A program made the position numbers and the translations under genes. From positions 43,064-107,063 of the forward strand of contig CAIOGO010000020.1 of assembly GCA_903857865.1 (NCBI GenBank): a stretch of 64,000 bases of DNA, written 5' to 3'. Shown here one piece after another: positions 1,456-64,000 of this stretch. Source of the stretch: an uncultured bacterium (lineage in GTDB: Bacteria > Bipolaricaulota > Bipolaricaulia > UBA7950 > UBA9294). The notes under the pieces were generated by a model. The model did no database searches. It saw only the letters and a program-made list of their open reading frames with translations, and had not been told where the DNA came from. Position 1 is the first letter of the stretch. Each line of letters begins with the position of its first letter.

Positions 1456-2838
1456 CTACTTGTGCACCCGGCGCAGGAACTCCTCGATCTCGGGCATGCC
1501 GCCCTGGAAGATGAGGTACCCGTCGTGCGGTTCGCGCTCGGTGATCTCGCCGGCGATCGGTGTCAACATCAGTTCGCGCACGCGTTCGAGGTCGCTCGTT
1601 TGGCCGAGGGCCCACGCAAGCTTGATGTAGGCGACCTCGGGGAGCATGTTCTCGGTGGGGATGATGCCCTTCGCCATCAGGTCGCGCCCGGTGTCGTAGA
1701 CGAACATGTGGACGTAGCCCCACAGGGTTTGCACGGTCATGTAGATGGCCACGCCAGCGGCCACGGCGCGCTCGATGGCGGGATAGACGGGTTTGTTGAT
1801 GTGCCCGAGCCCTGTCCCGGCGATGACGATGCCCTTGTACCCGTGCTCGACGAGCGAGTCGATGATGTCGGGATGCATGTTGGGGTAGTAGTAGGTCAGC
1901 GTCACCCGCTCTTCGAAGAAGGGCAGGATGTCGACGTGCCGGTCGGCGCGGCGGTGCGCGTAGTCCTGGCGCAGCGGCTTGACCCCGTCGCGCGTGACGG
2001 TGGCGAGCGGGATGTCGCCGACGGTGCGGAAGGTCGAGCGGTAGGACGAGTGCATCTTGCGGACGCGTGTCGCGCGGTGCAGCAGGCCGTACTCGTCTGA
2101 GGTCGGGCCGAACATGCACACCATGACCTCGGCGATGTCCGACGTCGCGGCCGTGGTCGTGGCGTGGATGAGATTCCGCGCCGCGTCCGACGACGGGCGG
2201 TCGGCCGACCGCTGCGAGCCGACCATGACGATCGGCACCGGCGAGTGCTGCACCATGAACGCAAGCGCGCTCGCGGTGTGGTGCATCGTGTCCGTCCCGT
2301 GGCCGATGACGATGCCGTCGATTCCGTTCTCGATCTCGCGGCCGATCGCCTTGGCGAGCTCGATGTACTGCGACGGCCCCATGTTCTCGGAGAAGACAGC
2401 GAACAGCTTCTCGGTCGAGAGGTTGCAGATGTCGGCCAGCTCCGGGACGGCGCCGTACAGCTCGCCGGGCGAGAACGCGGGGATCACCGCGCCGGTTCGA
2501 TAGTCGAGACGCGACGCGATCGTCCCTCCCGTGCCGAGGAGCTTGACGTTGGGCTTGTCTGGCGATGTCGGGAACTCCTTCTCTGGGATCTTGTAGTGCG
2601 CTTCGCGGCGGCCCAGTTCCTGGATCGCGCGGATCGTGCGCACGTCGATGCCGACGTTGTAGCCCGTGGCGAGCTTGAGGACGAGGTGGCGCGAGTCGTC
2701 GAATTCGGAGCGCGGGAGCACGATCCCGCGGAAGTGGCCGCGCGTCGACTCGACATCGACGTCGCTCCAGACCCCCACCTGGAATCGCGTTAGGACGTCG
2801 AGAGCCTCGCCCTTGTAGCCCTTGTGGGCGTCGCTCAT
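1456..2838 (-). CDS. gatD: Glu-tRNA(Gln) amidotransferase subunit D (asparaginase-domain, archaeal type)
   Basis: Asparaginase signatures LLGTGGTIAS and GIVIGHGTDTM; ATG at 2838 overlaps upstream gatE stop as ATGA; ORF track extends 7 codons further to GTG at 2859. Confidence 0.8.
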   Translation of the reverse strand: MSDAHKGYKGEALDVLTRFQVGVWSDVDVESTRGHFRGIVLPRSEFDDSRHLVLKLATGYNVGIDVRTIRAIQELGRREAHYKIPEKEFPTSPDKPNVKLLGTGGTIASRLDYRTGAVIPAFSPGELYGAVPELADICNLSTEKLFAVFSENMGPSQYIELAKAIGREIENGIDGIVIGHGTDTMHHTASALAFMVQHSPVPIVMVGSQRSADRPSSDAARNLIHATTTAATSDIAEVMVCMFGPTSDEYGLLHRATRVRKMHSSYRSTFRTVGDIPLATVTRDGVKPLRQDYAHRRADRHVDILPFFEERVTLTYYYPNMHPDIIDSLVEHGYKGIVIAGTGLGHINKPVYPAIERAVAAGVAIYMTVQTLWGYVHMFVYDTGRDLMAKGIIPTENMLPEVAYIKLAWALGQTSDLERVRELMLTPIAGEITEREPHDGYLIFQGGMPEIEEFLRRVHK

Positions 2839-4775
2839 CGTGTCGCCTCCTCGACCCACGCCGCGGTGTCGCGGAGCGGGACGTTGCCCATCGCGAGCGG
2901 GCGGATGCAGCCCATCAACGCGCGAACGCGCGCTTCCGGTTCAGGATGGCGAGCGACGAACGCCTTGGCGCAACGAGCGATCTGCGCGCGGATCTCCTTC
3001 GGCGTCGCCTTTCGGTAGCCGACGCGGCCGAGAAGGTCGTCGAACGTCGCGGCCGGCTCGAGAAGCGCAAGCGGCACGAGGAGTCGCAGGATCTCACGAG
3101 TAAGGTCGCGCTCTGCCGCCTCGACGATGACCCAGCGCACGCGCTCGACGTCGATCTCGCGGGCGCCCATGGCGTGCCGGACGTTGTGGCCGAGGAGCGT
3201 TGCCGCGAACGCGGAATCGACCTTGCGCTCGACGAGCCAGGCGAGGGTCGGCGATAGGTCGCGGCGGAGGATGTAGGCGTGCACGTCCTCGGGAGCGCTC
3301 CAGGCGCGGAGCGCCGCCATCCGGCGATCGACGGACTCCGGCAGGCGGGCGCGCGTTCGCTCGATCGCCTCTTCCTCGATCGGGATCGGCGCGGAGTCGG
3401 TGTCGGGGTACATGCGGTCCGGACCCGGCAGCACCCGCTCGAAGATCGTCGTCCCGTTGGGAAGCCCCTTGCGTGTCTCGTTGGGTACGCCTTGGAACGC
3501 GAGGCGGCACCGCTCGACGAGCGTGTCGACGGCGGTCGGGAGGTCAGCCGCCGGGCCCCAAACGAGGACGACTCCGTCATTCGACTTCGCGCCAACACGG
3601 ATCGCCAGCGTCCGCCACGCGGCGGGCGAGATGGCCGAGGCGGGTTGGTCGGGGTGGGCGAGATTCGGCACCGCGATGCAGGCCACAACCTTCAGTCGAT
3701 CGGAGAACTCGTCGGCGAACGTGCGCCCCGGGTTGGTGAAGAACGACAGGAGGCCGCCGAAGCGCGGCAGCCGAAAGATCACCGCGGACGCTGTTGACGG
3801 GACGATGCCGTCGACGAGATGGCGATCCGCATCGCCGAGGGGGACGTGCGTCGCCGTCCACGCGGTGGGGGCGCTCACGCGTCGCCGGAGCTCATCGCGG
3901 ATGAGCAGAAGAGCCTTCTGACGGAACGCCTCATTGTGCGTCAGCTCGGGGATCCAGCGGATGTGTTGCACACCCTTGATCTCGACTCGGGTCCCGCCCT
4001 CGACGCTGACGTTGACGTCCTCGCGCGCGGCGCCGATGCCCACGTTGACGTGCCGCGTGCTGCGCGCAAGGTAGCGAATGTAGTTCGCCGCTTCGGCCGC
4101 CTCGTCCGGGGTCAGAAGCTCGGGCTCCGTCACCGTCTCGATGAGCGGCATGCCGAGGCGATCGGTCGTGTAGGTTCGCTCGTGCCCCACGTCGCTCACC
4201 TCGCGGCACGAGTCCTCTTCGACGCTCAGCTGACGCACGCCGACGCGCTTGCCGGCGACGGGCAGATGGCCGTCGATGCCGATGATCGCCGTGCGCTGGA
4301 ATCCGGTGGGGATGCTGCCATCCAGGTACTGCTTCCGCGCGATGTGGAGCTCGCCGACGATGCTCGTGTTGAGGAGCAGGGCGACCTCGATCGCAATGTC
4401 GATGGCCTGTCGGTTGACGGCGAACGGCGGGGTATCGTCGATGTCGTACGTGCACGCCGTCTCGCCCTTGATGCGGTAGATGATATTCTTCTTGGTCTTG
4501 TACTCCATGAGCGCCGTGCCGTCGTACTCGCCCAGTTCGCTCAGCGTTGGGCGCATGTGGCGGACAAGTTGGGCGTCGTAGTCGTCGCCGTCCTGGTAGT
4601 GCCCGGCCGGGCAGCGGCAGAAGAGCTTCTTCGTCGTGCGGAGTTGCTGGTGCACCTCGAGCCCGCAGCGGAACCCGAGCGTGCGGTAGGTTTCCTGCGT
4701 CGCCTCGGCGCGGCGGACGTAGCCGAGGAGATTGTGGCTGTCCGGATTCTCGGAGATCGCGTCGTCCTTCTTCAT
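2835..4775 (-). CDS. gatE: Glu-tRNA(Gln) amidotransferase subunit E (GatB/E catalytic domain plus AspRS-like insertion domain)
   Basis: GLEVHQQL motif near N-terminus, long insertion domain, translationally coupled to gatD; start set at MKKDD (aa 36 of track ORF 2835..4880). Confidence 0.8.
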   Translation of the reverse strand: MKKDDAISENPDSHNLLGYVRRAEATQETYRTLGFRCGLEVHQQLRTTKKLFCRCPAGHYQDGDDYDAQLVRHMRPTLSELGEYDGTALMEYKTKKNIIYRIKGETACTYDIDDTPPFAVNRQAIDIAIEVALLLNTSIVGELHIARKQYLDGSIPTGFQRTAIIGIDGHLPVAGKRVGVRQLSVEEDSCREVSDVGHERTYTTDRLGMPLIETVTEPELLTPDEAAEAANYIRYLARSTRHVNVGIGAAREDVNVSVEGGTRVEIKGVQHIRWIPELTHNEAFRQKALLLIRDELRRRVSAPTAWTATHVPLGDADRHLVDGIVPSTASAVIFRLPRFGGLLSFFTNPGRTFADEFSDRLKVVACIAVPNLAHPDQPASAISPAAWRTLAIRVGAKSNDGVVLVWGPAADLPTAVDTLVERCRLAFQGVPNETRKGLPNGTTIFERVLPGPDRMYPDTDSAPIPIEEEAIERTRARLPESVDRRMAALRAWSAPEDVHAYILRRDLSPTLAWLVERKVDSAFAATLLGHNVRHAMGAREIDVERVRWVIVEAAERDLTREILRLLVPLALLEPAATFDDLLGRVGYRKATPKEIRAQIARCAKAFVARHPEPEARVRALMGCIRPLAMGNVPLRDTAAWVEEATR

Positions 4776-5185: not shown

Positions 5186-6205
5186 ATGATGTCCCTGAGA
5201 TTGCCTGAAGGATACACCGATCGTCCGGCCCGGCTGTCCGATGCCGAACCGCTGACGCAGATGTTCAACGCCGACTCCCAACGCCTGTTCGGCGTGAACC
5301 AGCATGACGCCGAGAACCTCGCCACCGAATGGCAGACGCCCGGATTCGATCTGGGCCGCGACACCCGCGTCGTGCTCGCACCGTCGGGAAAGCCGGCGGG
5401 GTACGCCGAAGTCTGGGATACGGACGCGCCCCACGTCCGGCTCTGGAGCTGGGGCTGCGTCGACCCGCAGGAGCGCGGCCGCGGCGTCGGCTCCACGCTC
5501 GTCGCTTGGCAGGAGGGGCGCGGCCGCGCGGCGCTCGACGTGGCGCCGTCTGGATCTCGCGTCAGTCTGCGCCAGTCGGTGTCGAGCCTAGACGAGCCTG
5601 CGGGACGTCTCCTTGAGTTCAGCGGGTACGCGGCCATTCGCCACAACTTCCAGATGAAGATCGAACTGGACCGGGCCACGCCGGCGCCTGTGTGGCCAGG
5701 CGGGGTCACTGTTCGGACCTTCGACCCAGCTCGCGACCTTCTCCCGATGGTCGAAGCCATCCGGGCCGCATTCCGCGACCACTGGGGCTACGTGGAGTCG
5801 CCTCTCGAAAGCAGCCTTGCCGTCTGGCGCCACATCGTGACCGAAGAGAAGAGCTTCGATGCAAGCCTCTGGTTCCTCGCGGAGCACGACGGCGACATCG
5901 TCGCCGTGGCTTTGTGCTCGGCGATGGAGCCGGAGGACCCCGACCTTGGCTACGTGAACACGCTCGGCGTCGTCCGGCCGTGGCGCCGGCGAGGAATCGG
6001 ACTCGCGCTCCTCCATCACGCGTTCGCGGAACTTGGGCGCCGGGGCAAGAGGCGCGTCGCTCTCGGCGTCGATGGTGCGAGCCTTACCGGTGCCGTCCGC
6101 CTGTACGAGCGGGCAGGAATGCACGTCGAGCGGCGCCGCGTCCTCTACGAGAAGGAACTCCGCGCCGGGGTGGATCTGACGACGCAAAGCCTGGAGACGT
6201 CGTGA
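5186..6205 (+). CDS. Two-domain GNAT N-acetyltransferase (mycothiol-synthase-like architecture)
   Basis: Two acetyl-CoA-binding-like segments (QERGRGVGSTLV and RPWRRRGIGLALL); RBS GAAGGAAG before ATG at 5186 (track ORF starts at 5000). Confidence 0.8.
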   Translation: MMSLRLPEGYTDRPARLSDAEPLTQMFNADSQRLFGVNQHDAENLATEWQTPGFDLGRDTRVVLAPSGKPAGYAEVWDTDAPHVRLWSWGCVDPQERGRGVGSTLVAWQEGRGRAALDVAPSGSRVSLRQSVSSLDEPAGRLLEFSGYAAIRHNFQMKIELDRATPAPVWPGGVTVRTFDPARDLLPMVEAIRAAFRDHWGYVESPLESSLAVWRHIVTEEKSFDASLWFLAEHDGDIVAVALCSAMEPEDPDLGYVNTLGVVRPWRRRGIGLALLHHAFAELGRRGKRRVALGVDGASLTGAVRLYERAGMHVERRRVLYEKELRAGVDLTTQSLETS

Positions 6206-7986
6206 AACTGCCGCTTCGAGAAGGGCTGACCCTGCTTGGCCGCTACGTGCGGCCCCAAGCGCGCTGGGTCGTCGCGCTCGCCGCCCTCGTCCTGGCGACA
6301 ATCGGCCTTCGCTTGGCGAACCCGCAAATCCTGCGAGAGTTCATCGACACGGCGATGGCCGGGGGAGAGCGTGCGGTGCTGATCCGAGACGCCCTCCTCT
6401 TCTTCGGCATCGCGGTCGCGGCCCAGCTCTTGTCCGTGGCGGCTACCTACGTCGGCGAGACCGTCGCTTGGTCGGCGACCAACGCGTTGCGCCTCGATCT
6501 CCTTCGGCACGCCTTGGCTCTCGACGCGACCTTTCACAAGGATCACACGCCAGGGCAGCTCATCGAGCGCATCGACGGCGATGTCGCCACGCTGTCGAAC
6601 TTCTTCTCACGCTTCACGATTGACATCCTCGGCAACGCCATCCTGGTGGCCGGTATCATCGGGCTCTTGTTCCGCGAGGACTGGCGCATCGGCCTACCGA
6701 TCCTCGCATTCGCCGCCTTCACCGTATGGCTGCTCGGGCGCATCCGCAAGGTCGCCGTCCCGCACTGGACCGCCTACCGCAAGCTGGTCGCCGAGTTCTT
6801 CGGATTCCTCGGAGAACGCCTCGGCGGGACGGAGGACCTCCGGGCGAACGGTGCCGTCGGGTACACGTTGCGGCGCTTCTTCGCGTTCTGCCGCCGTCTC
6901 TTCCCGGCGTACCGCTGGTCCAGCGTCGCCGGGTACTCGATGTGGATAGCCAACGTCGCCCTGTTCACCGGCGGGTTCGCCATCGCCTTCGGCGTGGGCG
7001 CCACCCTGTGGAGAGCCTCGATCATCACGCTCGGCACCGTGTACCTGGTGTTCCACTACACGGAGCTTCTGCAGGGCCCCATCTCGCAGATGCGCGAGCA
7101 GATCACCGATCTCCAGCGCGCCGAGGCCGGGATCCGCCGAATCCGGACCCTGCTTGCCGCGTCGTCCGCGATCCGCGACGAGGGCAAGTCGGCGCTCCCC
7201 GACGGCCCGCTCTCGGTTGCGTTCGAGAGCGTCACGTTTGCCTATCAGCCGTCGCGCCGCGAAGACGGACCCGCCGAAAACGAGCCCGAGCCGACCGCCG
7301 CCCTGCGCGACGTCCGGCTCACCGTGCCCGCGGGCACGACGCTCGGACTCCTGGGGCGCACGGGAAGCGGCAAGACGACCCTTGCGCGCCTCGTCGCGCG
7401 TCTCTACGACTGCCAGCAGGGCGTCGTCGAGGTGGGCCGCATCCCCGTGGCCGACGTCCCGCTCGCCGACCTCCGCCGCCGCGTGCGGATGGTGTCTCAG
7501 GATGTGCAGATCTTCCGCGCCTCGGTGCGCGAGAACGTCCGCCTGTTCGACCCAACGGTGTCCGACGAGCGGATCCTCGCCGCGTTGGGCGAGCTCGGCC
7601 TGCGCGACTGGGCGCTGGCCCTGCCGCAGGGACTCGACACGGTCGTCGGAACGTCTGACGCCGGGCTGTCGGCCGGGCAGAGCCAACTCCTCGCCTTGGC
7701 GCGGGCTTTCCTCGCGGACCCCGGTGTGGTCATTCTCGACGAGGCCTCGTCGCGCCTCGATCCCGCGACGGAAGCCCTGCTCGAACGAGCGGTGGACCGA
7801 CTCCTCGCCGGGCGCACGGCGATTCTGATCGCACACCGCCTGTCGACAGTCCGCCGCGCCGATCGGATCGCCATCCTCGAGGACGGCCGGGTCATCGAAT
7901 CTGGCGAGCGCGAGGCGCTCGCCCGTGACCCACACTCCCGCCTCGCTCGGCTCCTGGAGACCGGAATGGAGGAGGTGCTCGCGTGA
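6202..7986 (+). CDS. ABC exporter, fused permease/ATP-binding protein (heterodimer partner 1)
   Basis: N-terminal TM segments; Walker [10 protein letters not shown], signature LSAGQSQLL, Walker [10 protein letters not shown]; GTG start overlaps GNAT stop as GTGA. Confidence 0.85.
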
Positions 7987-36110: not shown

Positions 36111-36181
36111 TGGGAGATCGTTCAATGGCAGGACAGCAGGCTCTGGCCCTGTTAATGGGGGTTCGAATCCTCCTCTCCCAA
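36111..36181 (+). tRNA. tRNA-Gln (anticodon CUG)
   Basis: Manual fold: 7-bp acceptor TGGGAGA/TCTCCCA, D-arm GTTC-AATGGCA-GGAC, anticodon arm GCAGG-CTCTGGC-CCTGT with CTG centred after U33, T-arm GGGGG-TTCGAAT-CCTCC; no encoded CCA. Confidence 0.85.
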
Positions 36182-56524: not shown

Positions 56525-57231
56525 CCTTCCTGCGGGACAGGCGGCGAGTCTGTCTCCACCGCAAGACGCCGTTCGACGGCGACAAGGCGCGTGAGGTAGA
56601 CGGCGAGGATGAGAGCGAAGTGGCACATGATGGACGGCAACGCGCCGCTCGTCGTCGGCACGAACCACGTCGTCACCAGCGACGGCACGATGAACGCCAC
56701 CGATCCCGTGCGGAGATGGGAGAAGAGCTGCCGCGCGTTCGAGTCCGACGCAGCCTTCGCACCGTACGCCGAGAACCCGACCATGCCCAAGAGTCCGATC
56801 CAGTAGAAGCCGGAGTAGACCATGGATCGCGGTATCGTGTGCGAGTACCGGGCGAACACGGTCGAGCAGACGGATGCGGACACGAATCCCGGGTCGGCGG
56901 CAATCCACAGGACGATGCCGAGCGCCGCCGCGAACATCGCGTACGCTGCCCCGGAAACGACCCTCGACCGAGGTGTGAACAGCCTGGCCGCTAGGAGGAT
57001 GCCGGCTGGCGGCAGCCACGTCACGACGATGAACGCAAGTCGCGGAAGGAATCCGTACACGGGATTGGCAGAGCAGATCAGCACCTCAGTGATCTGGTAG
57101 CCGGCGAGCAGGAGGAGGATTGCACCCGTGATGCGCACGATGTCCTTCCGCCCCGGCCCCGACAACGCCCACACCGCCACGGCGACCTCGAACAGCGCGG
57201 TCGCCACCCCCAGTATCGGCGAGTACTGCAT
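56521..57231 (-). CDS. Integral membrane protein, unknown function
   Basis: Six or more hydrophobic segments; start at MQYSPILG preceded by AAGGAGGG (track ORF extends to 57276). Confidence 0.6.
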
Positions 57232-57742
57232 GATCCCTCCTTGCGTTCTGGCCGCAGAGTATACGATCCGCTTCACGCAATGCCACGCCAGCCGCCGGGT
57301 GCTGAGCGCCCCGCACCCGGCGCCCCACGTCTCCTGACCTGAGCGCTCAGCTTGTGCGAGCGAGCCGGAATGCGCGTGACTTGGCAGACGATGAACTGCG
57401 AGAAGGCCCTTCGCGACGGGATCAACGTGGCAACGCGGCAGCTGCCGACGAAGGGCGAAGACGAGACGATCAGAGACGCCGTGTCTCGGGGCGGGTTCTG
57501 TTCTCTGGGTTCAAGTCACAGACCCCAAGCCCGCGACTTCACGTTGAGGGGTGGAGAGACCGCCTGTCAAGAGGCTGCCGGGGGATGGGCTTCTTCGTCT
57601 CCGATCTCACGACGGCACATGGCCGGACCGTGTAAGGAAACGTCAAAAGTCAAGACCCAACAGCCCCGCGAAGCGCGTCCGCTGTACTGCGAGGTAGCCT
57701 GCTCGCTCCCTACCCGCGAACAAAGGACCAAGTCCCGGCCCC

Positions 57743-58585
57743 TTACGTCTTGGGATAGTCGCTCACGTGCCGGACGACGAGCTCGCGCGGGGAGTCCGCG
57801 GCTCGCTGCACCAGGAGCCGCACCTCCTCCCCGAGCGCATGCTTACGGATCGCGGCCTGCATCTCGGGTAGGGTGCGGACTTCTTGACCATCGACAGCGA
57901 GGAGCCGTTCTCCGCCGCGCACGCCGGCGCGCGCCAGCTCACTCTCCGGCTTGGGAACTTGGAGGACCAAGCCGGGCAATGACGTTTCCGCGGCGGCCGC
58001 CTCCCGCCAAGCAGCTACCAGGGTCTGCGTTCCCAACGCAACACACCCACAGGCACCGAGCCCGCACATGGGGCAGATGCACGAGCAATGAAGAGCGACC
58101 TGGGCCAGCTCCCAGGCCACAACGGTGGGCAGGAGGCGATTGATCGTCAGGGCCGCGTCGGCATAGGCCTTCAAGTGCTTGGGCGCGATCTCTCGAAGTG
58201 GCGGCTCATACAACCGTAGCGCCATCTCGTACAGCATCGCGTAGCTTATCGCGCCGTGGTTGAATGCAACGGAGATTTGACGCAGAGCACTCGACACCGT
58301 GGAGGGCGAACTGAACGCGAAGCTGGCGGTGGGTGTGCCGCCGCCCGGCTCGGAGCCGAGGCTCTTGATGTAGGCCGCGAGTCGGTCTCGCTGCGACTGG
58401 ACCATTGGCACGAAGCGCTCGACGGTTACCATGGCGTCGGGGTATCCGCGGGCCGCTTGTTGCTCACGCTCCAGCCTTACCTCGAGTTCGGTCTCGAAGG
58501 CGATGACCTCCGTTACCGCACGGCGCAATGCCTGTCGCCTCAGATCTACCGCCATGTCGAATCCTCCCTTCGTCCGTCTGTCCAA
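57743..58585 (-). CDS. Hypothetical protein with Cys cluster and C-terminal PDZ-like domain
   Basis: CSCICPMCGLGACGC cluster; C-terminal GLVLQVP...ARAGVRGGERLLAVDGQEV resembles PDZ; start may be the second Met at 58555. Confidence 0.55.
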   Translation of the reverse strand: MDRRTKGGFDMAVDLRRQALRRAVTEVIAFETELEVRLEREQQAARGYPDAMVTVERFVPMVQSQRDRLAAYIKSLGSEPGGGTPTASFAFSSPSTVSSALRQISVAFNHGAISYAMLYEMALRLYEPPLREIAPKHLKAYADAALTINRLLPTVVAWELAQVALHCSCICPMCGLGACGCVALGTQTLVAAWREAAAAETSLPGLVLQVPKPESELARAGVRGGERLLAVDGQEVRTLPEMQAAIRKHALGEEVRLLVQRAADSPRELVVRHVSDYPKT

Positions 58586-59201
58586 CGATGATTAGTGTGC
58601 AGGTTCGCTACATAGCGCACCGACGTCCGCCAGCCTACAAGGGCCTTCCCGCCCTTCTTCTCCTCCTGTTGTGGCGCTGCGCAGTGAAACGCAGAGCCTG
58701 GCGCGAGCCTACAGCCATGCGTTCGTTGGCAGCAAGCGCGTGGCTGCGGAAGGGGAAGCCTCTGAACTCCCCCAGATGAACTGGCCCGCGGGGCCAAAGG
58801 ACTCACCGCGGATGCATCGCTCCCAGACACGCCCAACCGACCGGAACAGGGCTTCGCACGGTGGCCAAACGGGATGCGTGATCGCAAGACCTGCCCCCGG
58901 CGCCCCATGACCCTGCGCCCCGCTACTCAAAGCATCGCGCGAACTTGGATGCGACAGTCTGCTCGCCCTGACCGACTCCGAGAAAGGCGAGGAACGCGCA
59001 TCGTGGTTTGGGATGGATGGGACCGTCCGCTTCACGCCCCTGTGACGTTGGCTGCTTGAGACTTCTGCGACGCCCGAGGAGATCAACATGAAGGCGCCCT
59101 CGCGGAGGAAGCGCTAGCCAACGGAGCCACCCCATCATGACCACCGCGATCCGCTAGAAGCTCGTGCTGGATTGCAAGACCGAACCCCGACGCCGGCGAA
59201 T

Positions 59202-59361
59202 GTCGCACACAAGGTGCGACGCTACATCGAACCTTGCGGCGACGCGCGATCCGTGGTCCGAGATCCCTGTAGCGTCGGAGCTTGCCTCCGACGGTCGCCC
59301 CTGCGGTCTTCGGGGGAGGGCCAGCGGCCCGTCGCACACAGGGTGCGACGCTACAACGTTT
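59202..59361. repeat. Two direct copies of a ~31-nt element containing a GTCGCAC/GTGCGAC hairpin, plus an inverted partial copy between them
   Basis: GTCGCACACAAGGTGCGACGCTACATCGAAC at 59202-59232 and GTCGCACACAGGGTGCGACGCTACAACGTTT at 59331-59361; inverted TGTAGCGTCGG near 59269. Confidence 0.6.
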
Positions 59362-59416
59362 CACAACCACCGCGCGTGACGTCGACGTGGTCCCGCCAAC
59401 GGACCGCGAACTCGGC

Positions 59417-59722
59417 TCACGCACTCAGGTATCGCTTGAGGTCGCGGTAGAAGTTCTCGTGCCCGCCGAGTGCAAGAAGGGTGACCGTCTTCGCTGGCGC
59501 ATCGGGCCAATACGCGAGAAGGTAGATCTGATCCGCAAGCCTGAACTTGTGAACGAACACGCCACGCAGGTCGCCCACCTTCTCCTCGCCAAGCGAGGGA
59601 TCCTGGCAGATGGCGCGGACCTGCTGGTCCACTTCGGCTCGTAGGACGGACGGAAGTCTCTTCTTGATGCGATCGAAATGGTGGACGGAGACGGGGGTAT
59701 AGGGCACGAGCGCTAGCCCCAC
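59417..59722 (-). CDS. Type II toxin, RelE/ParE superfamily
   Basis: ~100 aa basic protein overlapping an upstream RHH gene; start codon uncertain. Confidence 0.7.
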   Translation of the reverse strand: MGLALVPYTPVSVHHFDRIKKRLPSVLRAEVDQQVRAICQDPSLGEEKVGDLRGVFVHKFRLADQIYLLAYWPDAPAKTVTLLALGGHENFYRDLKRYLSA

Positions 59723-59952
59723 TCGTACGGCACGACGTCGCCATCCTTCATCTGTTCGAGAGCCTCGAGGATGTCTGCTCGGAATTGCGGATGAAGTTCG
59801 CTGTATTGGCGGACGTAGTTCTCAATCGCGAGTTGGATGACGTTGCTCGTCGTGCGGCGCTCCGCCTTCGCGATCTCTTCAATCTGCTCGCGTAGCTCCT
59901 GCGACACCTTGGCGGATACTGTCGATGTGGGCATAACGGCCCACTCTAGCAT
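59713..59952 (-). CDS. Ribbon-helix-helix (CopG/Arc family) antitoxin
   Basis: TVSAKVSQELREQIEEIAKAERRTTSNVIQLAIENYV is a typical RHH fold; directly upstream of the toxin. Confidence 0.7.
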   Translation of the reverse strand: MLEWAVMPTSTVSAKVSQELREQIEEIAKAERRTTSNVIQLAIENYVRQYSELHPQFRADILEALEQMKDGDVVPYEWG

Positions 59953-60023
59953 GGATCGTCTACTTCGTCCACTTTGTCATCCGATGTGCTGCAGTGCAAA
60001 ACCGAGCCCCGGCATCGCCGCTC

Positions 60024-60209
60024 TTAGGGGTGGGGCACGGCTAGCGACCGACAGATCTTCTTGGCCAGGATGTCGGGGATCTCGTTGTCGCGGGGAACGG
60101 CCTCCACGTAGCCGGTCCGCGGGTTCTCCCACAGCGAATGGGATGCCCCCTCGCGCTTGAAGATACAGCCGTGGCGTCGCAAATGCTGAAGCAGAGCCTG
60201 ACGCTTCAT
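60024..60209 (-). CDS. hicA: HicA-family toxin
   Basis: 61 aa, LLQHLRRHGC...REGASHSLWENP typical of HicA; 4-nt overlap with upstream HicB-like gene. Confidence 0.8.
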   Translation of the reverse strand: MKRQALLQHLRRHGCIFKREGASHSLWENPRTGYVEAVPRDNEIPDILAKKICRSLAVPHP

Positions 60210-60421
60210 CCGATCTTTACGACATCTCGAACGGCGTCCTTCGGCACTCCCCGCAGGCCCTCCTCGCGACGATCCTCAAGGATCAACTCAATCGCGGAGG
60301 CGAGACTCTGCAGACATTCCTCCCTGCTTCGGCCCTGGCCGTTGGCGCCAGGGATCTCCGGGCAGTAGCCAATGTACCACTCGCCATCCTGTTCAATGAC
60401 CGCAGTGAACTCGTTCCGCAT
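60206..60421 (-). CDS. hicB: HicB-family antitoxin
   Basis: 71 aa, FTAVIEQDGEWYIGYCPEIPGANGQGRSREEC pattern of HicB. Confidence 0.75.
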   Translation of the reverse strand: MRNEFTAVIEQDGEWYIGYCPEIPGANGQGRSREECLQSLASAIELILEDRREEGLRGVPKDAVRDVVKIG

Positions 60422-60722
60422 CGCTACCCCTCCGCCATGGCAGCGTATGGCAAGGCGATCCCGCAGTCAATCATCGGCCGCGATGCACCGCGCACAGGGA
60501 ACGGCAAGAGGCAGGGCGCGGCCCCGCTGCCCGAGGCGAGTACTTGCGCGTTCACCGCGGAGCACGCAGAGAAGCGGGTGATATTGCAGTGCAAGACCAG
60601 ACCCCGTCGCCTCACTCCCGCCACGAACGGAAGAGGAGTTCCGCAGGAACTCCCCAGCTGCCCGGCCACGCAGAGCAGCCCTTGACCAGGCGATACAGCA
60701 TCTGATCCTATCGAGCTCTTCT

Positions 60723-61094
60723 CTACGGCTTGCGGCGCTCCAGATTGACGAGAACGCGGCCGTTCTCTTGCTTGACTGCGTAGGTCTCAAGATCGTGCGT
60801 CCGGACGCCGGCCATCAGCGCGCCCGCCTTGAGGACCCTCGGGATTGGGATCCTCGGATCGCTCACCCGCTTCCCCGTCGCGAGCTCGAACCTCGCCTTG
60901 TGCAGCGGGCAGACGACACAGCCATTCTCGATCTTCCCCTCGTGGAGCGGCCCGTTCATGTGGGGGCAGCGATCGCCGAAGGCGTAGATGCCTTGCCCAA
61001 CCTTGGCGAGGGCGATCTCGCGGTCGCCCACGTCAACCTTCATCATTCCCCCGTCGGGGATCTCCCCCACCGCGGCGATGTCCTTCCATTCCAT
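60723..61094 (-). CDS. Rieske [2Fe-2S] domain protein (ferredoxin-like)
   Basis: CPHMNGPL ... CPLHKARF = Rieske CxH...CxxH ligand pairs; start taken at MEWKDI. Confidence 0.7.
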   Translation of the reverse strand: MEWKDIAAVGEIPDGGMMKVDVGDREIALAKVGQGIYAFGDRCPHMNGPLHEGKIENGCVVCPLHKARFELATGKRVSDPRIPIPRVLKAGALMAGVRTHDLETYAVKQENGRVLVNLERRKP

Positions 61095-61271
61095 GGTGAG
61101 CCTCCTTCTTTGCCGCGCACACTCTGTCACTTCAGGAGGATTGAGCCAATTCGGTCGCCCACCGCACTCTCAGAAGAGCATCAATGCGAGATTGCGGGCC
61201 TGACTCAGCGCCCTAGTCTGCCAGCTTCCGACCCCGCCGGTCGACCCCGTCGCCCTCGAAAGTCAGCCGCG

Positions 61272-61691
61272 CTAGAAGACCCCGCGGAGGAAGGCAGCGG
61301 CTTCGTCAGAGATGCCGACGATCTTGTCGGTTGCTTGGCGGTAGAACTTGAAGTTGAGCTCAGTCTCCGGGCGACCGTCGTCCCAGTCGGAGAAGGGTTT
61401 GAGCTCGCTTCGTCCAAGGCGGCGCTTCGCGAGCGCGGTGCGCCGGACGGTGATGGTGACGCGCGGCGTCTGCCGGGCGAGCCCGGACTTCAGCGGAGTT
61501 GGTTCGGCCGAGGTGACGATCCCGCTCGCGATCAGGCCCGAGCCGCCCTCGTTCTCGCTCGCGAAGATGAAGATCGTGTCGCCCGCAGCGACCTTCTTGC
61601 CGCCGTACATCGTCTTCTGGTTCGCGAACGCGAACGTCTCTGCCCCAGGGTCACGGACCTCGGCCTTGATCGCGTACGCTCTCTCCCCCAT
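61272..61691 (-). CDS. Hypothetical protein (139 aa), unknown function
   Basis: Coding-like codon bias; no recognisable family. Confidence 0.5.
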   Translation of the reverse strand: MGERAYAIKAEVRDPGAETFAFANQKTMYGGKKVAAGDTIFIFASENEGGSGLIASGIVTSAEPTPLKSGLARQTPRVTITVRRTALAKRRLGRSELKPFSDWDDGRPETELNFKFYRQATDKIVGISDEAAAFLRGVF

Positions 61692-61757
61692 TACCCTCCG
61701 AGGAACCTGTGACCACTTGTGCTCGAGTGTCCCCGATAGATGGGGACTTGAAGCGCC

Positions 61758-62243
61758 CTAGCTCACCTTCTGCGCCAGGTCCCGCGCGAAGGCTTCGGCT
61801 CGCTTGAGATCCTCGACGTTCGGCCGCTTCTTGTTGAGGCCGCCGAAGTACCGGAGGAACATGTTGGTGTTGAAGCCGGGGCAGCCGAACTCACTGACGA
61901 TCGCGTAGCCCCTGGCCTCGAGCTTCGCGCGGAGAGCCGCGTGGTTGCTGCGGATGAAGCCCTCCGTGACGATGAACGCTGGGGCGCCGCAGGTCGAGAA
62001 GATGAACGCCTTCTTGGCGTCGACCGAGGGCAGCTTGTCGGCAAGATCGAGAATCGGCTTGTAGTGCTTGCCGCTGTCGATTCCCGAGCCGAAGCCGACG
62101 AGGTCGTACCCGGCAAGCTCCGCCGGACTCACTTCGCGTGGCGCCACGATCCTTGCACCGAGAACCTCTGCGAGGACCTTGGCCACGGCTTCCGTATTCT
62201 TGTGATGGTACGAGTGCAGCACCAAGAGACTCTTGATCGACAT
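61758..62243 (-). CDS. Flavodoxin-like fold protein
   Basis: N-terminus SLLVLHSYHHKNTEAVAKVLAE typical of flavodoxin-like reductases. Confidence 0.7.
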   Translation of the reverse strand: MSIKSLLVLHSYHHKNTEAVAKVLAEVLGARIVAPREVSPAELAGYDLVGFGSGIDSGKHYKPILDLADKLPSVDAKKAFIFSTCGAPAFIVTEGFIRSNHAALRAKLEARGYAIVSEFGCPGFNTNMFLRYFGGLNKKRPNVEDLKRAEAFARDLAQKVS

Positions 62244-62392
62244 GCGCTTCCCTCCGTCTACGGGGCTTCTGTTCAGAGAGTGATTCTACTCCCGGCGTAG
62301 TCCTTCCCTGCTCACGTGCGCTCGACAATCCCTTCCGCGGGATGTCGGTGCGTTGTTGCACCCGGGACCTCGTCCCCGCACATGATGCAGGC

Positions 62393-62698
62393 TCATCCCG
62401 AGCGGACGTAGACCACCACTTCTTTCTCGAGCCGACTCCCCAGGCGATCCCGCTCGACTTGCAGGTCGTAGTGGACCTGCAAGTTCGACCAGAACGTCTC
62501 CGTCATGCCGAAATAGCGGGCCAGCCGCAGGGCTGTGTCCGGGCTGATCGCCCGCTTGCCATGCACGATCTCGTTGACACGGCGCGGAGCGACCCCGATG
62601 TCCTTCGACAGCCGATACTGGCTAATGCCAAGCGGCTCAAGGAACTCCTCCATCAGGATCTCGCCGGGATGTACTGGCGCCATCTTCTGTGCGGCCAT
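62393..62698 (-). CDS. higA: HigA-family antitoxin (XRE-type HTH)
   Basis: VHPGEIL...LGISQYRLSKDIGVAPRRVNEIVHGKRAISPDTALRLARYFG; RBS GAGGAGG before ATG at 62698, 10 nt after higB stop. Confidence 0.8.
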   Translation of the reverse strand: MAAQKMAPVHPGEILMEEFLEPLGISQYRLSKDIGVAPRRVNEIVHGKRAISPDTALRLARYFGMTETFWSNLQVHYDLQVERDRLGSRLEKEVVVYVRSG

Positions 62699-62708
62699 GG
62701 AAACCTCC

Positions 62709-62990
62709 TCAGTGGTAGTCGACCATCTCCACACCGTACGCATCGCCGCGCTTCCACTCGAAGCACAGCCGCCACTGATCATTGATTCGAATGCTGTACT
62801 GACCCTCCCGGCGGCCCGAGAGCTTCTCCAGCCGGTTTCCCGGTGGAACACGCAGGTCCTGTAACGAGCCCGCCGCATGAAGGATGGCGAGCTTCTTCCA
62901 CGCGGCTCGTCGGAGATCTGGCGAGAAGTCCGGCACCCGGTCGCGTGCGAAGACCAGCCTGGTACGCGAGTCAGCGAAGGTCCGGATCAT
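62709..62990 (-). CDS. higB: HigB-like toxin (RelE/ParE superfamily)
   Basis: 93 aa toxin-first arrangement typical of higBA. Confidence 0.8.
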   Translation of the reverse strand: MIRTFADSRTRLVFARDRVPDFSPDLRRAAWKKLAILHAAGSLQDLRVPPGNRLEKLSGRREGQYSIRINDQWRLCFEWKRGDAYGVEMVDYH

Positions 62991-62998
62991 CGTTTCGT

Positions 62999-63027
62999 AT
63001 AATAACGCTGTGCGATAATACCGTCAA
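62999..63027 (-). promoter_or_regulatory. Promoter TTGACG-17 nt-TATTAT immediately upstream of higB (leaderless mRNA)
   Basis: Read on reverse complement; -10 ends 8 nt before the higB ATG. Confidence 0.45.
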
Positions 63028-63221
63028 GGGACACTATGGCAAAGGCGCTGCCCAGAGTGAGAACTCGCCCGCCGGGCAATCCGTGGTAGGCCCCGACGCC
63101 AGAGCGCTATCCCCTCGCCAGCAGGGATCCTGATGCGATAGGCTCAATCCCGCTACCTGTACTGGGCCTATGCGAGGAGTCAAGACCTCACCCCGCCGCC
63201 GTGATCCCAACACCGATCGCC

Positions 63222-63282
63222 CGAGATGAGTATTGTGTCCCCGGAACTCGGATCGAGATGAGTATTGTGTCCCCGGAACTCG
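63222..63282. repeat. Tandem direct repeat, two ~30-nt units
   Basis: CGAGATGAGTATTGTGTCCCCGGAACTCG occurs twice back to back. Confidence 0.7.
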
Positions 63283-63387
63283 CCGCATGCCATCTACAAG
63301 ACCGGCGGACCGTTCTGCCCTCCCGCTCTGAAGGAGGCTTGACATTCGATACAGCATCTAACCCCGTCGCCCGACGCGCAGGCTGAC

Positions 63388-63879
63388 TCACCCACAGCGC
63401 AGGCGACAGAGGCTGGCGATCAGCAACAGCGTCCAGATCAGCAGCAGCGCGCCCTCCAGGACGTAGTACCAGCTCTTCTGCACGCCTTCATGTGAGAACA
63501 CCCCGGTGTGGTTCGTCATCACCGGCCCGCAGTGGTTGCGGATGTTCCCCTCCAGTTTCTTGCACCGGTCCAGCTTCTGACTCTGGTACGATCGGAAGAC
63601 GTGAGTGAACCTGAGGCTCGCCAAGTTCACGACAAGCCCCAGCGTTGCGATCCCCGCAACGAAGCTCAACCGCAGCCAATGTCCGCGTCCGCCGAAGAGC
63701 GCACTCCCGACCGCTGCAAGAAGAATCGCATTCGCCGCAGTGAAAATGCTGATGACCTGCCACAGAAGGGAGTTGTAGTGCTGCGCCGAGTCCTGCGCCG
63801 CTTTGTACTCCTGGAGCGCGACCTCCAATCTCTTCTCCTCTGGCACGATGATGGTATCAGGGTTCTCGTGACTACACAT
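63388..63879 (-). CDS. Membrane protein, unknown function
   Basis: Two long hydrophobic segments; RBS AAAGGAGAA before ATG; visibly lower G+C. Confidence 0.55.
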   Translation of the reverse strand: MCSHENPDTIIVPEEKRLEVALQEYKAAQDSAQHYNSLLWQVISIFTAANAILLAAVGSALFGGRGHWLRLSFVAGIATLGLVVNLASLRFTHVFRSYQSQKLDRCKKLEGNIRNHCGPVMTNHTGVFSHEGVQKSWYYVLEGALLLIWTLLLIASLCRLRCG

Positions 63880-64000
63880 CTCGTTCTCCTTTTCTCGCTC
63901 CTGGCGTCTGGGCCAGGTCGTCTTGGATGGCCTGCAGCTCTTCGAGCGCGGCTTGGAGGTCTTCGATGATCTCGGCGGCGAGGACGTCGGGGCGTGATGT
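63872..64000 (-). CDS. 3' end of an unidentified gene (coiled-coil-like tail) entering from beyond the window
   Basis: Open frame to the window edge reading ...LAAEIIEDLQAALEELQAIQDDLAQTPG with G/C-rich third positions; not in ORF track because it lacks an in-window start. Confidence 0.35.
   Translation of the reverse strand, partial: TSRPDVLAAEIIEDLQAALEELQAIQDDLAQTPGARKGERDV

Follow-up and report, generated by a model that had tools for sequence, protein, structure and literature searches.

The window analysed here is a stretch of 64,000 nucleotides from contig CAIOGO010000020.1 (assembly GCA_903857865.1) of an uncultured Bipolaricaulota bacterium. From 57.6 kb onwards it contains an accessory island on the minus strand, which continues to about 9.5 kb past the window end. 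Starting at 57.7 kb, the gene order is a PDZ protein, ParE/ribbon-helix-helix (RHH), HicA/HicB, a Rieske protein, a 139-aa open reading frame (ORF), a flavodoxin-like protein, HigB/HigA and an 8xMP membrane protein. The window's sequence recurs in a metagenome contig, L001 (L001 coordinate = 73880 minus window coordinate), that reaches 9.9 kb beyond the window end; its gene table lists an MmeI-type restriction–modification (RM) gene, MNT/HEPN, ORF6N and a 1034-aa HD-CE protein there, all co-oriented. The toxin–antitoxin (TA) modules carry their own sigma-70-like promoters according to a promoter scan. The spacers between these genes share a short motif with the gene-strand consensus GGCGnC-GGGGTCAGGTCTTGCrATCnnGCAT. 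We propose, with a probability of about 0.75, that each of its copies is a lone, partly decayed terminal inverted repeat (TIR) from a TIRYT/TIRtron-type element; the Y1 HUH transposase of such elements belongs to the IS200/IS605 superfamily and ends in a C-terminal helix-turn-helix (HTH).

A preliminary description of this DNA, made from the sequence alone, had pointed to a recurring intergenic motif, and the recurrence is real. Allowing up to three mismatches, TGCAAGACCNNNCCCCGNCGCC matches the window five times, always on the plus strand (58883, 59173, 59995, 60590 and 63179), against a chance expectation of 0.20; the chance test that the description had suggested thus comes out in the motif's favour, since none of 100 shuffles reaches five. 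Repeat-finding on the window clusters the same copies as the pattern search did. Every copy lies in a non-coding spacer, downstream of or between minus-strand genes, just as had been described, and positions 1-57000 of the window hold no copy by either the pattern search or the foreign-copy profile introduced below. Among the five copies first listed, those at 59171-59194 and 60583-60611 are strong; the one at 59991-60019 is diverged, that near 57650 is weak, and 61230-61254 turned out to be a half copy. The list lacked the best copy (58874-58904) and another at 63167-63200, as well as half or variant copies at 63335-63372, 63088-63100 and 60680-60712.

Four further copies, one of them inverted, lie past the window end on the same contig: L001 carries them at 3961, at 405-431 and, inverted, at 636-662, with a sister variant at 3999-4020. 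The contig thereby holds ten single copies plus one 250-bp inverted pair (L001 405-662), and 10 of the 11 copies share one orientation. Several begin 0-25 nt past the upstream stop codon, and the distance from copy to downstream start ranges from 43 to about 400 nt. When window and foreign copies are aligned jointly, GGT..TG is invariant and TCTTGC..T....CA nearly so, and an invariant TGC-N6-GCA runs through the copies. A GGCGNC prefix precedes the tip in most copies of this island; GGCGNCGGGG is about 13-fold enriched on the motif strand within 58.9-63.4 kb.

The motif at the ends of TIRYT elements

The same sequence recurs far outside this genome. A scan of one genome per species with the pattern GGCGNCGGGGNNNGGTCTTGCR returned matches that, among those listed, are mostly due to chance; a subset of them, however, carries the 3' extension that the pattern leaves unspecified, with several copies per locus, and this subset, again among the matches listed, spans Gamma- and Betaproteobacteria, Bipolaricaulota, Thermoleophilia, Gemmatimonadota and Elusimicrobia. 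A metagenome scan with GGTCTTGCGATCRCGCAT found at least 120 loci, and a GGGGTCA tip is present in about a third of those listed. Among the metagenome matches there are cases of conserved inner flanks with outer flanks that differ.

Some of these copies enclose a transposase gene. In L102, a metagenome-assembled genome of Povalibacter, a 285-aa gene (1829-2686) lies between inverted motif copies at 1720 (+) and 2667-2697 (-), and the right copy encodes the last residues of the protein, ..LEMLDCKT and the stop. This protein matches Pfam Y1_Tnp (7.5e-13) together with HTH families, and NCBIfam REP_Tyr_transpos, the tyrosine transposase associated with repetitive extragenic palindromes (REPs), at 85.6 bits with a cut-off of 80. 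Two 91-bp doublets, each a left plus a right end, lie in the same locus (5800-5890 and 6470-6560). In L163, one of the metagenome loci with the GGGGTCA tip, a TIRYT gene ends with ..MRDRKT and the stop inside the repeat, the right end being GGGGTCAGGTCTTGCGATCACGCAT; the L102 and L163 transposases are just 40% identical. The TIRYT genes of L050 and L221 are flanked by sister variants of the end; L001 carries one of these variants too, and L221 has a solo motif copy 1.1 kb from its gene. Inverted doublets of 50-165 bp, which form hairpin miniature inverted-repeat transposable elements, are present in L067, L006, L014 and L242.

Two findings stand behind the proposed identification of the motif as a TIRYT end: elsewhere, such genes are bracketed by inverted copies of the same 25-30-nt sequence whose GGGG tips point outward, and the window copies match a profile built from foreign copies. 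This profile hidden Markov model was made from 30 foreign copies only and searched on the window and L001, where it recovers four window copies and three positions on L001 (Table 1); copies 4 (59986..60016) and 7 (57642..57676) were not picked up by it. TIRYT elements, or TIRtrons, are described as having ends that share GGGGWSAS and as forming repeat families whose units are single, dimeric or grouped (Di Nocera et al. 2013, PMC3733652); their genes, which encode a C-terminal HTH, are placed in subclass 2.1 TnpA_REP (Quentin et al. 2018, PMC6006769). The searched passages of these two papers make no mention of the consensus GGGGTCAGGTCTTGCrATCnnGCAT or of a cross-phylum spread, and a literature search with the motif sequence itself returned unrelated primers only. 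On this reading the motif is an additional member of a known, poorly characterised kind of element and not an integron site. The "REP-like element" option offered by the preliminary description was essentially right, the motif being the terminal repeat of elements with a REP-associated-type Y1/HUH transposase.

Two further observations concern foreign copies of this repeat. Among the known targets of IS110 relatives are REPs, attC sites, Tn21 ends and similar repeats, and in L053 an IS110-family transposase gene (2623-3663; DEDD_Tnp_IS110 + Transposase_20) begins right at a solo TIR copy (3647). In L067 a 58-nt TIR doublet (4541-4600) lies within the apparently continuous coding sequence of a large ATPase-type gene, which recalls the REP insertions reported inside repair genes.

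Copies in the window and neighbouring repeats

Table 1. Motif copies and associated features. Positions refer to the window unless L001 is named; E is the expectation value of a match to the profile of foreign copies.
Feature	Position	Strand	Sequence	Basis or remark
Co-oriented accessory genes	57743..63879	-		Pfam scans
Motif copy 7, weak, 1-nt indel	57642..57676	-	GCGGGGCTGTTGGGTCTTGACTTTTGAC	repeat-finding group
Motif copy 6, best	58874..58904	-	GGCGCC-GGGGGCAGGTCTTGCGATCACGCAT	1-mismatch pattern match; foreign-profile match 58866-58905, E 7.7e-07
Motif copy 5	59165..59194	-	GGCGTC-GGGGTTCGGTCTTGCAATCCAGCA	pattern match; foreign-profile match 59165-59194, E 3.2e-04
Motif copy 4, diverged	59986..60016	-	GATGCC-GGGGCTCGGTTTTGCACTGCAGCAC	3 mismatches; 74% to reference copy
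Motif copy 3	60580..60611	-	GGCGAC-GGGGTCTGGTCTTGCACTGCAATATC	pattern match; foreign-profile match 60580-60612, E 4.3e-06
8-bp palindrome	60635..60653	.		separate repeat family CCGGGCAGCTkGGGAG + hairpin, not the motif
Second variant-C copy	60680..60712	-	AGGATCAGATGCTGTATCGCCTGGTCAAGG	repeat-finding group
Half copies	61218..61254	-	GGCGACGGGGTCGAC + CGGCGGGGTCGGAAGCTGGCAG	tip and prefix retained, GGTCTTGC lost
Isolated half copy	63088..63100	-	GGCGTCGGGG	upstream of higBA promoter
Motif copy 2	63167..63200	-	GGCGGC-GGGGTGAGGTCTTGACTCCTCGCAT	pattern match; foreign-profile match 63167-63200, E 3.8e-04
Variant-C end with prefix	63335..63372	-	GGGCGAC-GGGGTTAGATGCTGTATCG..	15 nt past 8xMP stop
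Foreign-profile match	L001 3961			E 1.6e-04
Foreign-profile match	L001 412			E 0.027
Foreign-profile match	L001 652	opposite		E 0.041

Copy 6 is nearly identical to the right end of the L163 element; copy 5 is of the "right-end" type, its plus strand reading ..LDCKT as at the 3' end of a TIRYT gene, and the block of about 90 nt after it is 84% identical in locus L267. A reading of that block as the HTH end of a TIRYT gene was dropped, the hand alignment being too weak to claim. The sub-variant represented by copy 3 is also found in the Bipolaricaulota locus L009 and in L088. Copy 4 starts 8 nt past the hicA stop, upstream of the RHH/parE module, and copy 2 sits between the 8xMP gene and higBA. 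Copy 7, with TTGAC in place of TTGCA, is the last of the series and follows the conserved 3' region of the PDZ gene. The half copies at 61218..61254 begin 17 nt past the stop of the 139-aa gene, and the 11-mer GGCGACGGGGT is common to the half copy at 61230-61254, to 60601-60611 and to 63362-63372. The second variant-C copy begins 10 nt past the Rieske stop codon (60723-60725), and the homology of higBA with L267 begins about 10 nt downstream of the isolated half copy. Scored against GGGGWSAS, the tips of the foreign copies are mostly GGGGTCAG (8/8), while those in the window are GGGGTGAG (8/8), GGGGTCTG and GGGGGCAG (7/8), GGGGTTCG (6/8) and GGGGCTCG (5/8); the L001 copy at 3961 has AGGGTCCG (6/8).

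Several other repeats share these spacers. The perfect palindrome GGAGTTCC-GCA-GGAACTCC, with its 8-bp stem, lies at 60635-60653 exactly as first described. Other members of its family occur at L001 4537-4569, after ORF6N, where the hairpin is kept by different stem bases (GGAGAAACC/GGTTTCTCC), and at L267 4880-4920 and 6237-6272, in the opposite orientation. A separate, GTAG-tagged REP-like repeat occupies 59195-59360 in a gene-free spacer of 860 nt: TGTAGCGTCGCACCyTGTGTGCGAC is present at 59202-59229 and again at 59331-59358, an inverted partner lies at 59268-59299, and each unit forms a hairpin of 7 bp. Between the 8xMP gene and higBA, a perfect tandem duplication of 29 nt, CGAGATGAGTATTGTGTCCCCGGAACTCG, covers 63222-63250 and 63254-63282 at a spacing of 32 nt; it might be an iteron, an operator or the product of recent slippage. 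A 38-nt block, GCCGCGCCCTGCCTCTTGCCGTyCCCTGTGCGCrGTGC, is 95% identical between window 60485-60522 and L001 4051-4088, each time in a spacer about 90 nt downstream of a motif copy, which suggests a longer shared unit of about 130 nt. The 3' untranslated region of the PDZ gene (57677-57742; GTTCGCGGGTAGGGAGCGAGC..CTCGCAGTAC) is conserved in L261 and L263 (6814-6900), beside PDZ relatives with 79-81% protein identity, and in the window the weak copy follows it directly; this region may act as a terminator or represent a small RNA element under conservation.

State of the copies and competing readings

In the window the copies are solo, degenerate ends, nearly all co-oriented. They fold within the range of shuffled sequences (z -0.9 to +1.4), whereas strong folding is seen for an intact left end (z -4.7) and a doublet (z -7.3) taken from other genomes; the preliminary description had proposed folding each copy with its flanks. 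The search that it suggested for a cognate recombinase drew a blank locally: Pfam scans and the gene table gave none among the scanned window ORFs or the called L001 genes. A decayed TIRYT pseudogene beside the copies was also considered, and tblastn up to E 50 gave only noise. Because partner, nearby transposase and hairpin potential are all missing, the window copies are most likely immobile relics, or at best depend on a transposase whose gene lies elsewhere.

By analogy with IS608/ISDra2 and with RAYT/REP systems, we envision that a TIRYT transposase binds the repeat, with TGC-N6-GCA and the GGGG tip as likely recognition and cleavage features, and that the element would move as single-stranded DNA and insert beside a short target, which in this island would resemble GGCGNC. 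Strand-specific insertion of this kind would account for the co-orientation of 10 of the 11 copies here and of solo copies in other loci, and a 5' target beside the left end, as in IS608, would account for the GGCGNC prefix. Relics would then persist in the spacers of a horizontally assembled TA/defence island, the only places tolerating them, and, as repeated sequence, would come to coincide with module junctions.

Several points weigh against this interpretation. By tblastn, neither a TIRYT gene nor a recognisable relic of one exists in the 64-kb window or the 9.9 kb beyond, which makes the link to a transposase within the source genome hypothetical. Strict co-orientation and the position 0-25 nt from upstream stops are not predicted by random decay of ends; solo copies are likewise co-oriented within L105, L089, L009, L267, L271 and L272. 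A perfect fit to GGGGWSAS is limited to one of six window copies. In the metagenome set, which is unbiased, the prefix is a weak G-rich tendency with C at -1, and GGCGNC is not conserved. The orientation of the tip relative to GC skew, positive in 7 of 11 sequences, of which the window and L001 represent the same locus, points neither for nor against strand-specific insertion. Part of the similarity to foreign copies also arises by selection, as part of the foreign set was picked with a window-derived pattern; neither the loosely matched copies nor the part of the repeat 3' of GGTCTTGC depends on that pattern. Finally, the papers found on TIRYT elements (PMC3733652 and PMC6006769) contain no mobility assay.

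The alternative that survives best, although we consider it unlikely, is an active cassette system, in which the co-oriented ends would be working junctions where a TIRYT-type HUH (Y1) enzyme acting in trans moves a TIR together with its cargo. Equally unlikely in its particulars, such an enzyme would cut between GGCGNC and GGGG, and single-stranded circles would be moved between TA/defence islands, integron-like in outcome and IS200-type in chemistry. Co-oriented solo arrays with a spacing of 0.3-2 kb between small accessory genes, as seen in the window, L105, L089, L009, L267 and L272, speak for it, as do the copies that start 0-25 nt past upstream stops. Two junctions fit it as well. In a population variant (L136/L139), an unrelated Eco57I-like RM gene replaces MmeI, a 46-aa ORF and 8xMP, and joins the reference exactly between GGGyGwC and GGGGTTAGATGC (window 63372; L001 10508), which is the GGGG tip of the variant-C repeat. 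To the right of the junction, identity to the reference is 99.95%, whereas the swapped versions (L136 1-600 and L139 1-1500 against L001) have no detectable mutual similarity, although both end in GGGyGwC. In Viridibacterium L105, a duplicated unit starts exactly at the motif tip.

The composition of related islands points the same way. L267 and L001 have ParE/RHH (78%), ORF6N (67%), HigBA (93%), the block of TIR plus 90 nt (84%) and the GGAGTTCC hairpin in common, arranged differently in the two; in L276, MNT/HEPN adjoins ParE/RHH. Such differing identities (67-93%) and orders across three unrelated contigs, L001, L267 and L276, indicate that each module was acquired independently, and the islands are, judged from these comparisons, mosaics in which TIRYT ends lie among exchangeable modules.

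Against ongoing cassette movement, contigs carrying the window's HicB, ParE and HigB proteins, from about ten samples, keep the same module order save for the one swap. Among six distinct loci with ParE homologues, found without use of the motif, three (L267, L271 and L272) carry 2-5 co-oriented copies and three carry none. PDZ homologues occur in ordinary contexts without copies: the 36 kb around them, like the 57 kb of the window core, contain zero, and the PDZ gene as a mobile TIR-bounded cassette was rejected, since homologues of 73-81% identity sit in ordinary metabolic contexts. The window copies also lack hairpins, and homologous recombination between repeats would yield the same junctions. 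That the copies mark cassette boundaries, as the preliminary description put it, holds in a descriptive sense, with two breaks at a tip, although the same breaks would be expected from the end of a transposon or from a portable block of homology; the comparison of variable segments in related genomes that it had called for is similarly divided between two tip junctions and three ParE loci with copies, on one side, and three loci with none and an otherwise constant order, on the other. The data are compatible with ends that cause exchange, with ends that give homology for ordinary recombination, and with ends that accumulate where insertions are harmless. Two other discontinuities were noted in these contigs. 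The end of L129 near copy 5 proved to be Illumina adapter and not a breakpoint, and L002 6938-7045 (about window 63033) diverges from the reference 45 nt upstream of higB, away from any motif copy; an insertion, a further variant or a chimeric assembly could account for this.

A shared regulatory site, be it a sigma-54-type promoter (GG-N10-GC with TTGCA at -12) or an operator through which a single regulator controls the island genes, is very improbable. By reading, five copies have GG and GC 10 nt apart with TTGCA at -12, and the invariant TGC-N6-GCA resembles a dimer-binding site. The spacing fits, but the -24 box does not, being GGGGTC-like and not TGGCAC; two copies have GA for GC, the distance to the downstream start varies from 43 to about 400 nt, the TA modules have sigma-70-like promoters of their own, and the promoter scan puts promoters elsewhere. 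The same sequence, moreover, forms transposon ends in many phyla, and also occurs inverted. The operator option of the preliminary description thus gives way to a sequence conserved across phyla as mobile-element ends and lacking a conserved promoter context. A known RNA family fares no better as the identity of the motif: the sole Rfam match above the gathering threshold in the window is tRNA-Gln at 36111, with none in 57200-64000 even at E<=5. An attachment site made of a tRNA fragment near 57495-57540 is supported by neither ARAGORN nor Rfam.

We give hardly any credence to attC sites of a sedentary chromosomal integron, or of a cluster of attC sites lacking an integrase (CALIN), recombined by an IntI integrase. 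The content is cassette-like, with TA pairs, small ORFans, co-oriented genes and the motif in each spacer. However, a home-made scan of L001 1-17000 for an RYYYAAC...GTTRRRY pair with complementary inner boxes gave 0 candidates, although its sensitivity is limited, as it also missed the attC-like sites of L050; inspection by eye found no cores either. Near the window copies there is neither an inverted partner nor a hairpin above shuffles, and Phage_integrase has no match in the called genes of the 20.5-kb L001 or in the scanned window ORFs. Some modules encode 1034-1144 aa, and a Y1-transposase element has ends identical to the motif. On these grounds we rejected the attC reading, in keeping with the earlier remark that no canonical integron attC core was present and contrary to the integron-like recombination site suggested alongside it. 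The attC-like sequences of L050, a Bipolaricaulota contig, are imperfect palindromes (..AAC.GCATGCAGCGG...CCGCTGA.TGCGG..GTT..) at 3725-3775 and 4467-4522, after small genes; this contig carries a TIRYT element as well, and 6 nt past the second site (4467-4522) comes a solo TIR.

Chance or compositional recurrence in a GC-rich genome has next to nothing left in its favour for the core copies: GGCGNCGGGG alone occurs 18 times in the window and the copies at 57650 and 61230 are individually weak, but the shuffles, foreign-profile E values down to 8e-07 and the clustering of all copies in 6 kb on one strand exclude it.

Taken together, the TIRYT reading gives the spacer repeats a concrete identity and removes the need to annotate them as integron sites, operators or RNA of unassigned type. 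It also places them within a widespread kind of element, the same 25-nt end being present in at least six phyla among the matches listed. A locus with many solo ends, a variant that breaks at a tip and shuffled sister islands offers a practical test bed for asking whether such ends still recombine, and whether they help to assemble defence/TA islands. Should the ends be nothing but relics, this amounts to ordinary genome litter.

Comparison with known systems

Like integron cassette arrays, the island consists of co-oriented small accessory genes, TA pairs included, each followed by a related short site, with junctions at the site; unlike attC, the motif has no R/L boxes, folded bottom-strand hairpin or IntI, and is a transposon end. 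The GGGGTC tip is shared with the repeats of the Tn3 family, which are 38-bp sequences of the form GGGG...TAAG that bound a DDE transposase or a miniature derivative. As in the Tn3-derived inverted-repeat miniature elements (TIMEs), miniature derivatives bounded by repeats occur here as well. However, the similarity does not extend past the first six bases, and the enclosed gene is a Y1 transposase, not a DDE enzyme.

The IS200/IS605 elements, such as IS608 and ISDra2, share the transposase superfamily, and their strand-specific insertion by a short target would explain both co-orientation and the 5' flank. The ends of IS608, in contrast, are sub-terminal hairpins on one strand and not long inverted repeats, and no TnpB is present; the mechanism of TIRYT elements is likened to theirs by analogy only. 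Also comparable are the REPs and REPINs mobilised by RAYTs: short extragenic repeats tied to a domesticated-looking Y1 transposase, frequent downstream of genes, whose inverted doublets form hairpins. The motif differs from them in lacking a GTAG/GTGG tag, in that a single window unit forms no stable palindrome, and in that its elements look horizontally spread across phyla and not lineage-specific.

Compared with TIRYT/TIRtron elements as described, the window stands apart in having only solo, degenerate and co-oriented copies with no transposase gene in 74 kb, and in the extra GGCGNC prefix of copies concentrated in one TA/defence island. The following is shared with them: GGGG-tipped inverted repeats flank Y1/HUH + HTH genes in L102, L163, L050 and L221 (the right end in L163, sister variants in L050 and L221), copies lie singly, as dimers or in groups in intergenic DNA, and the right repeat overlaps the end of the gene, which closes with ..DCKT or ..DRKT and the stop.

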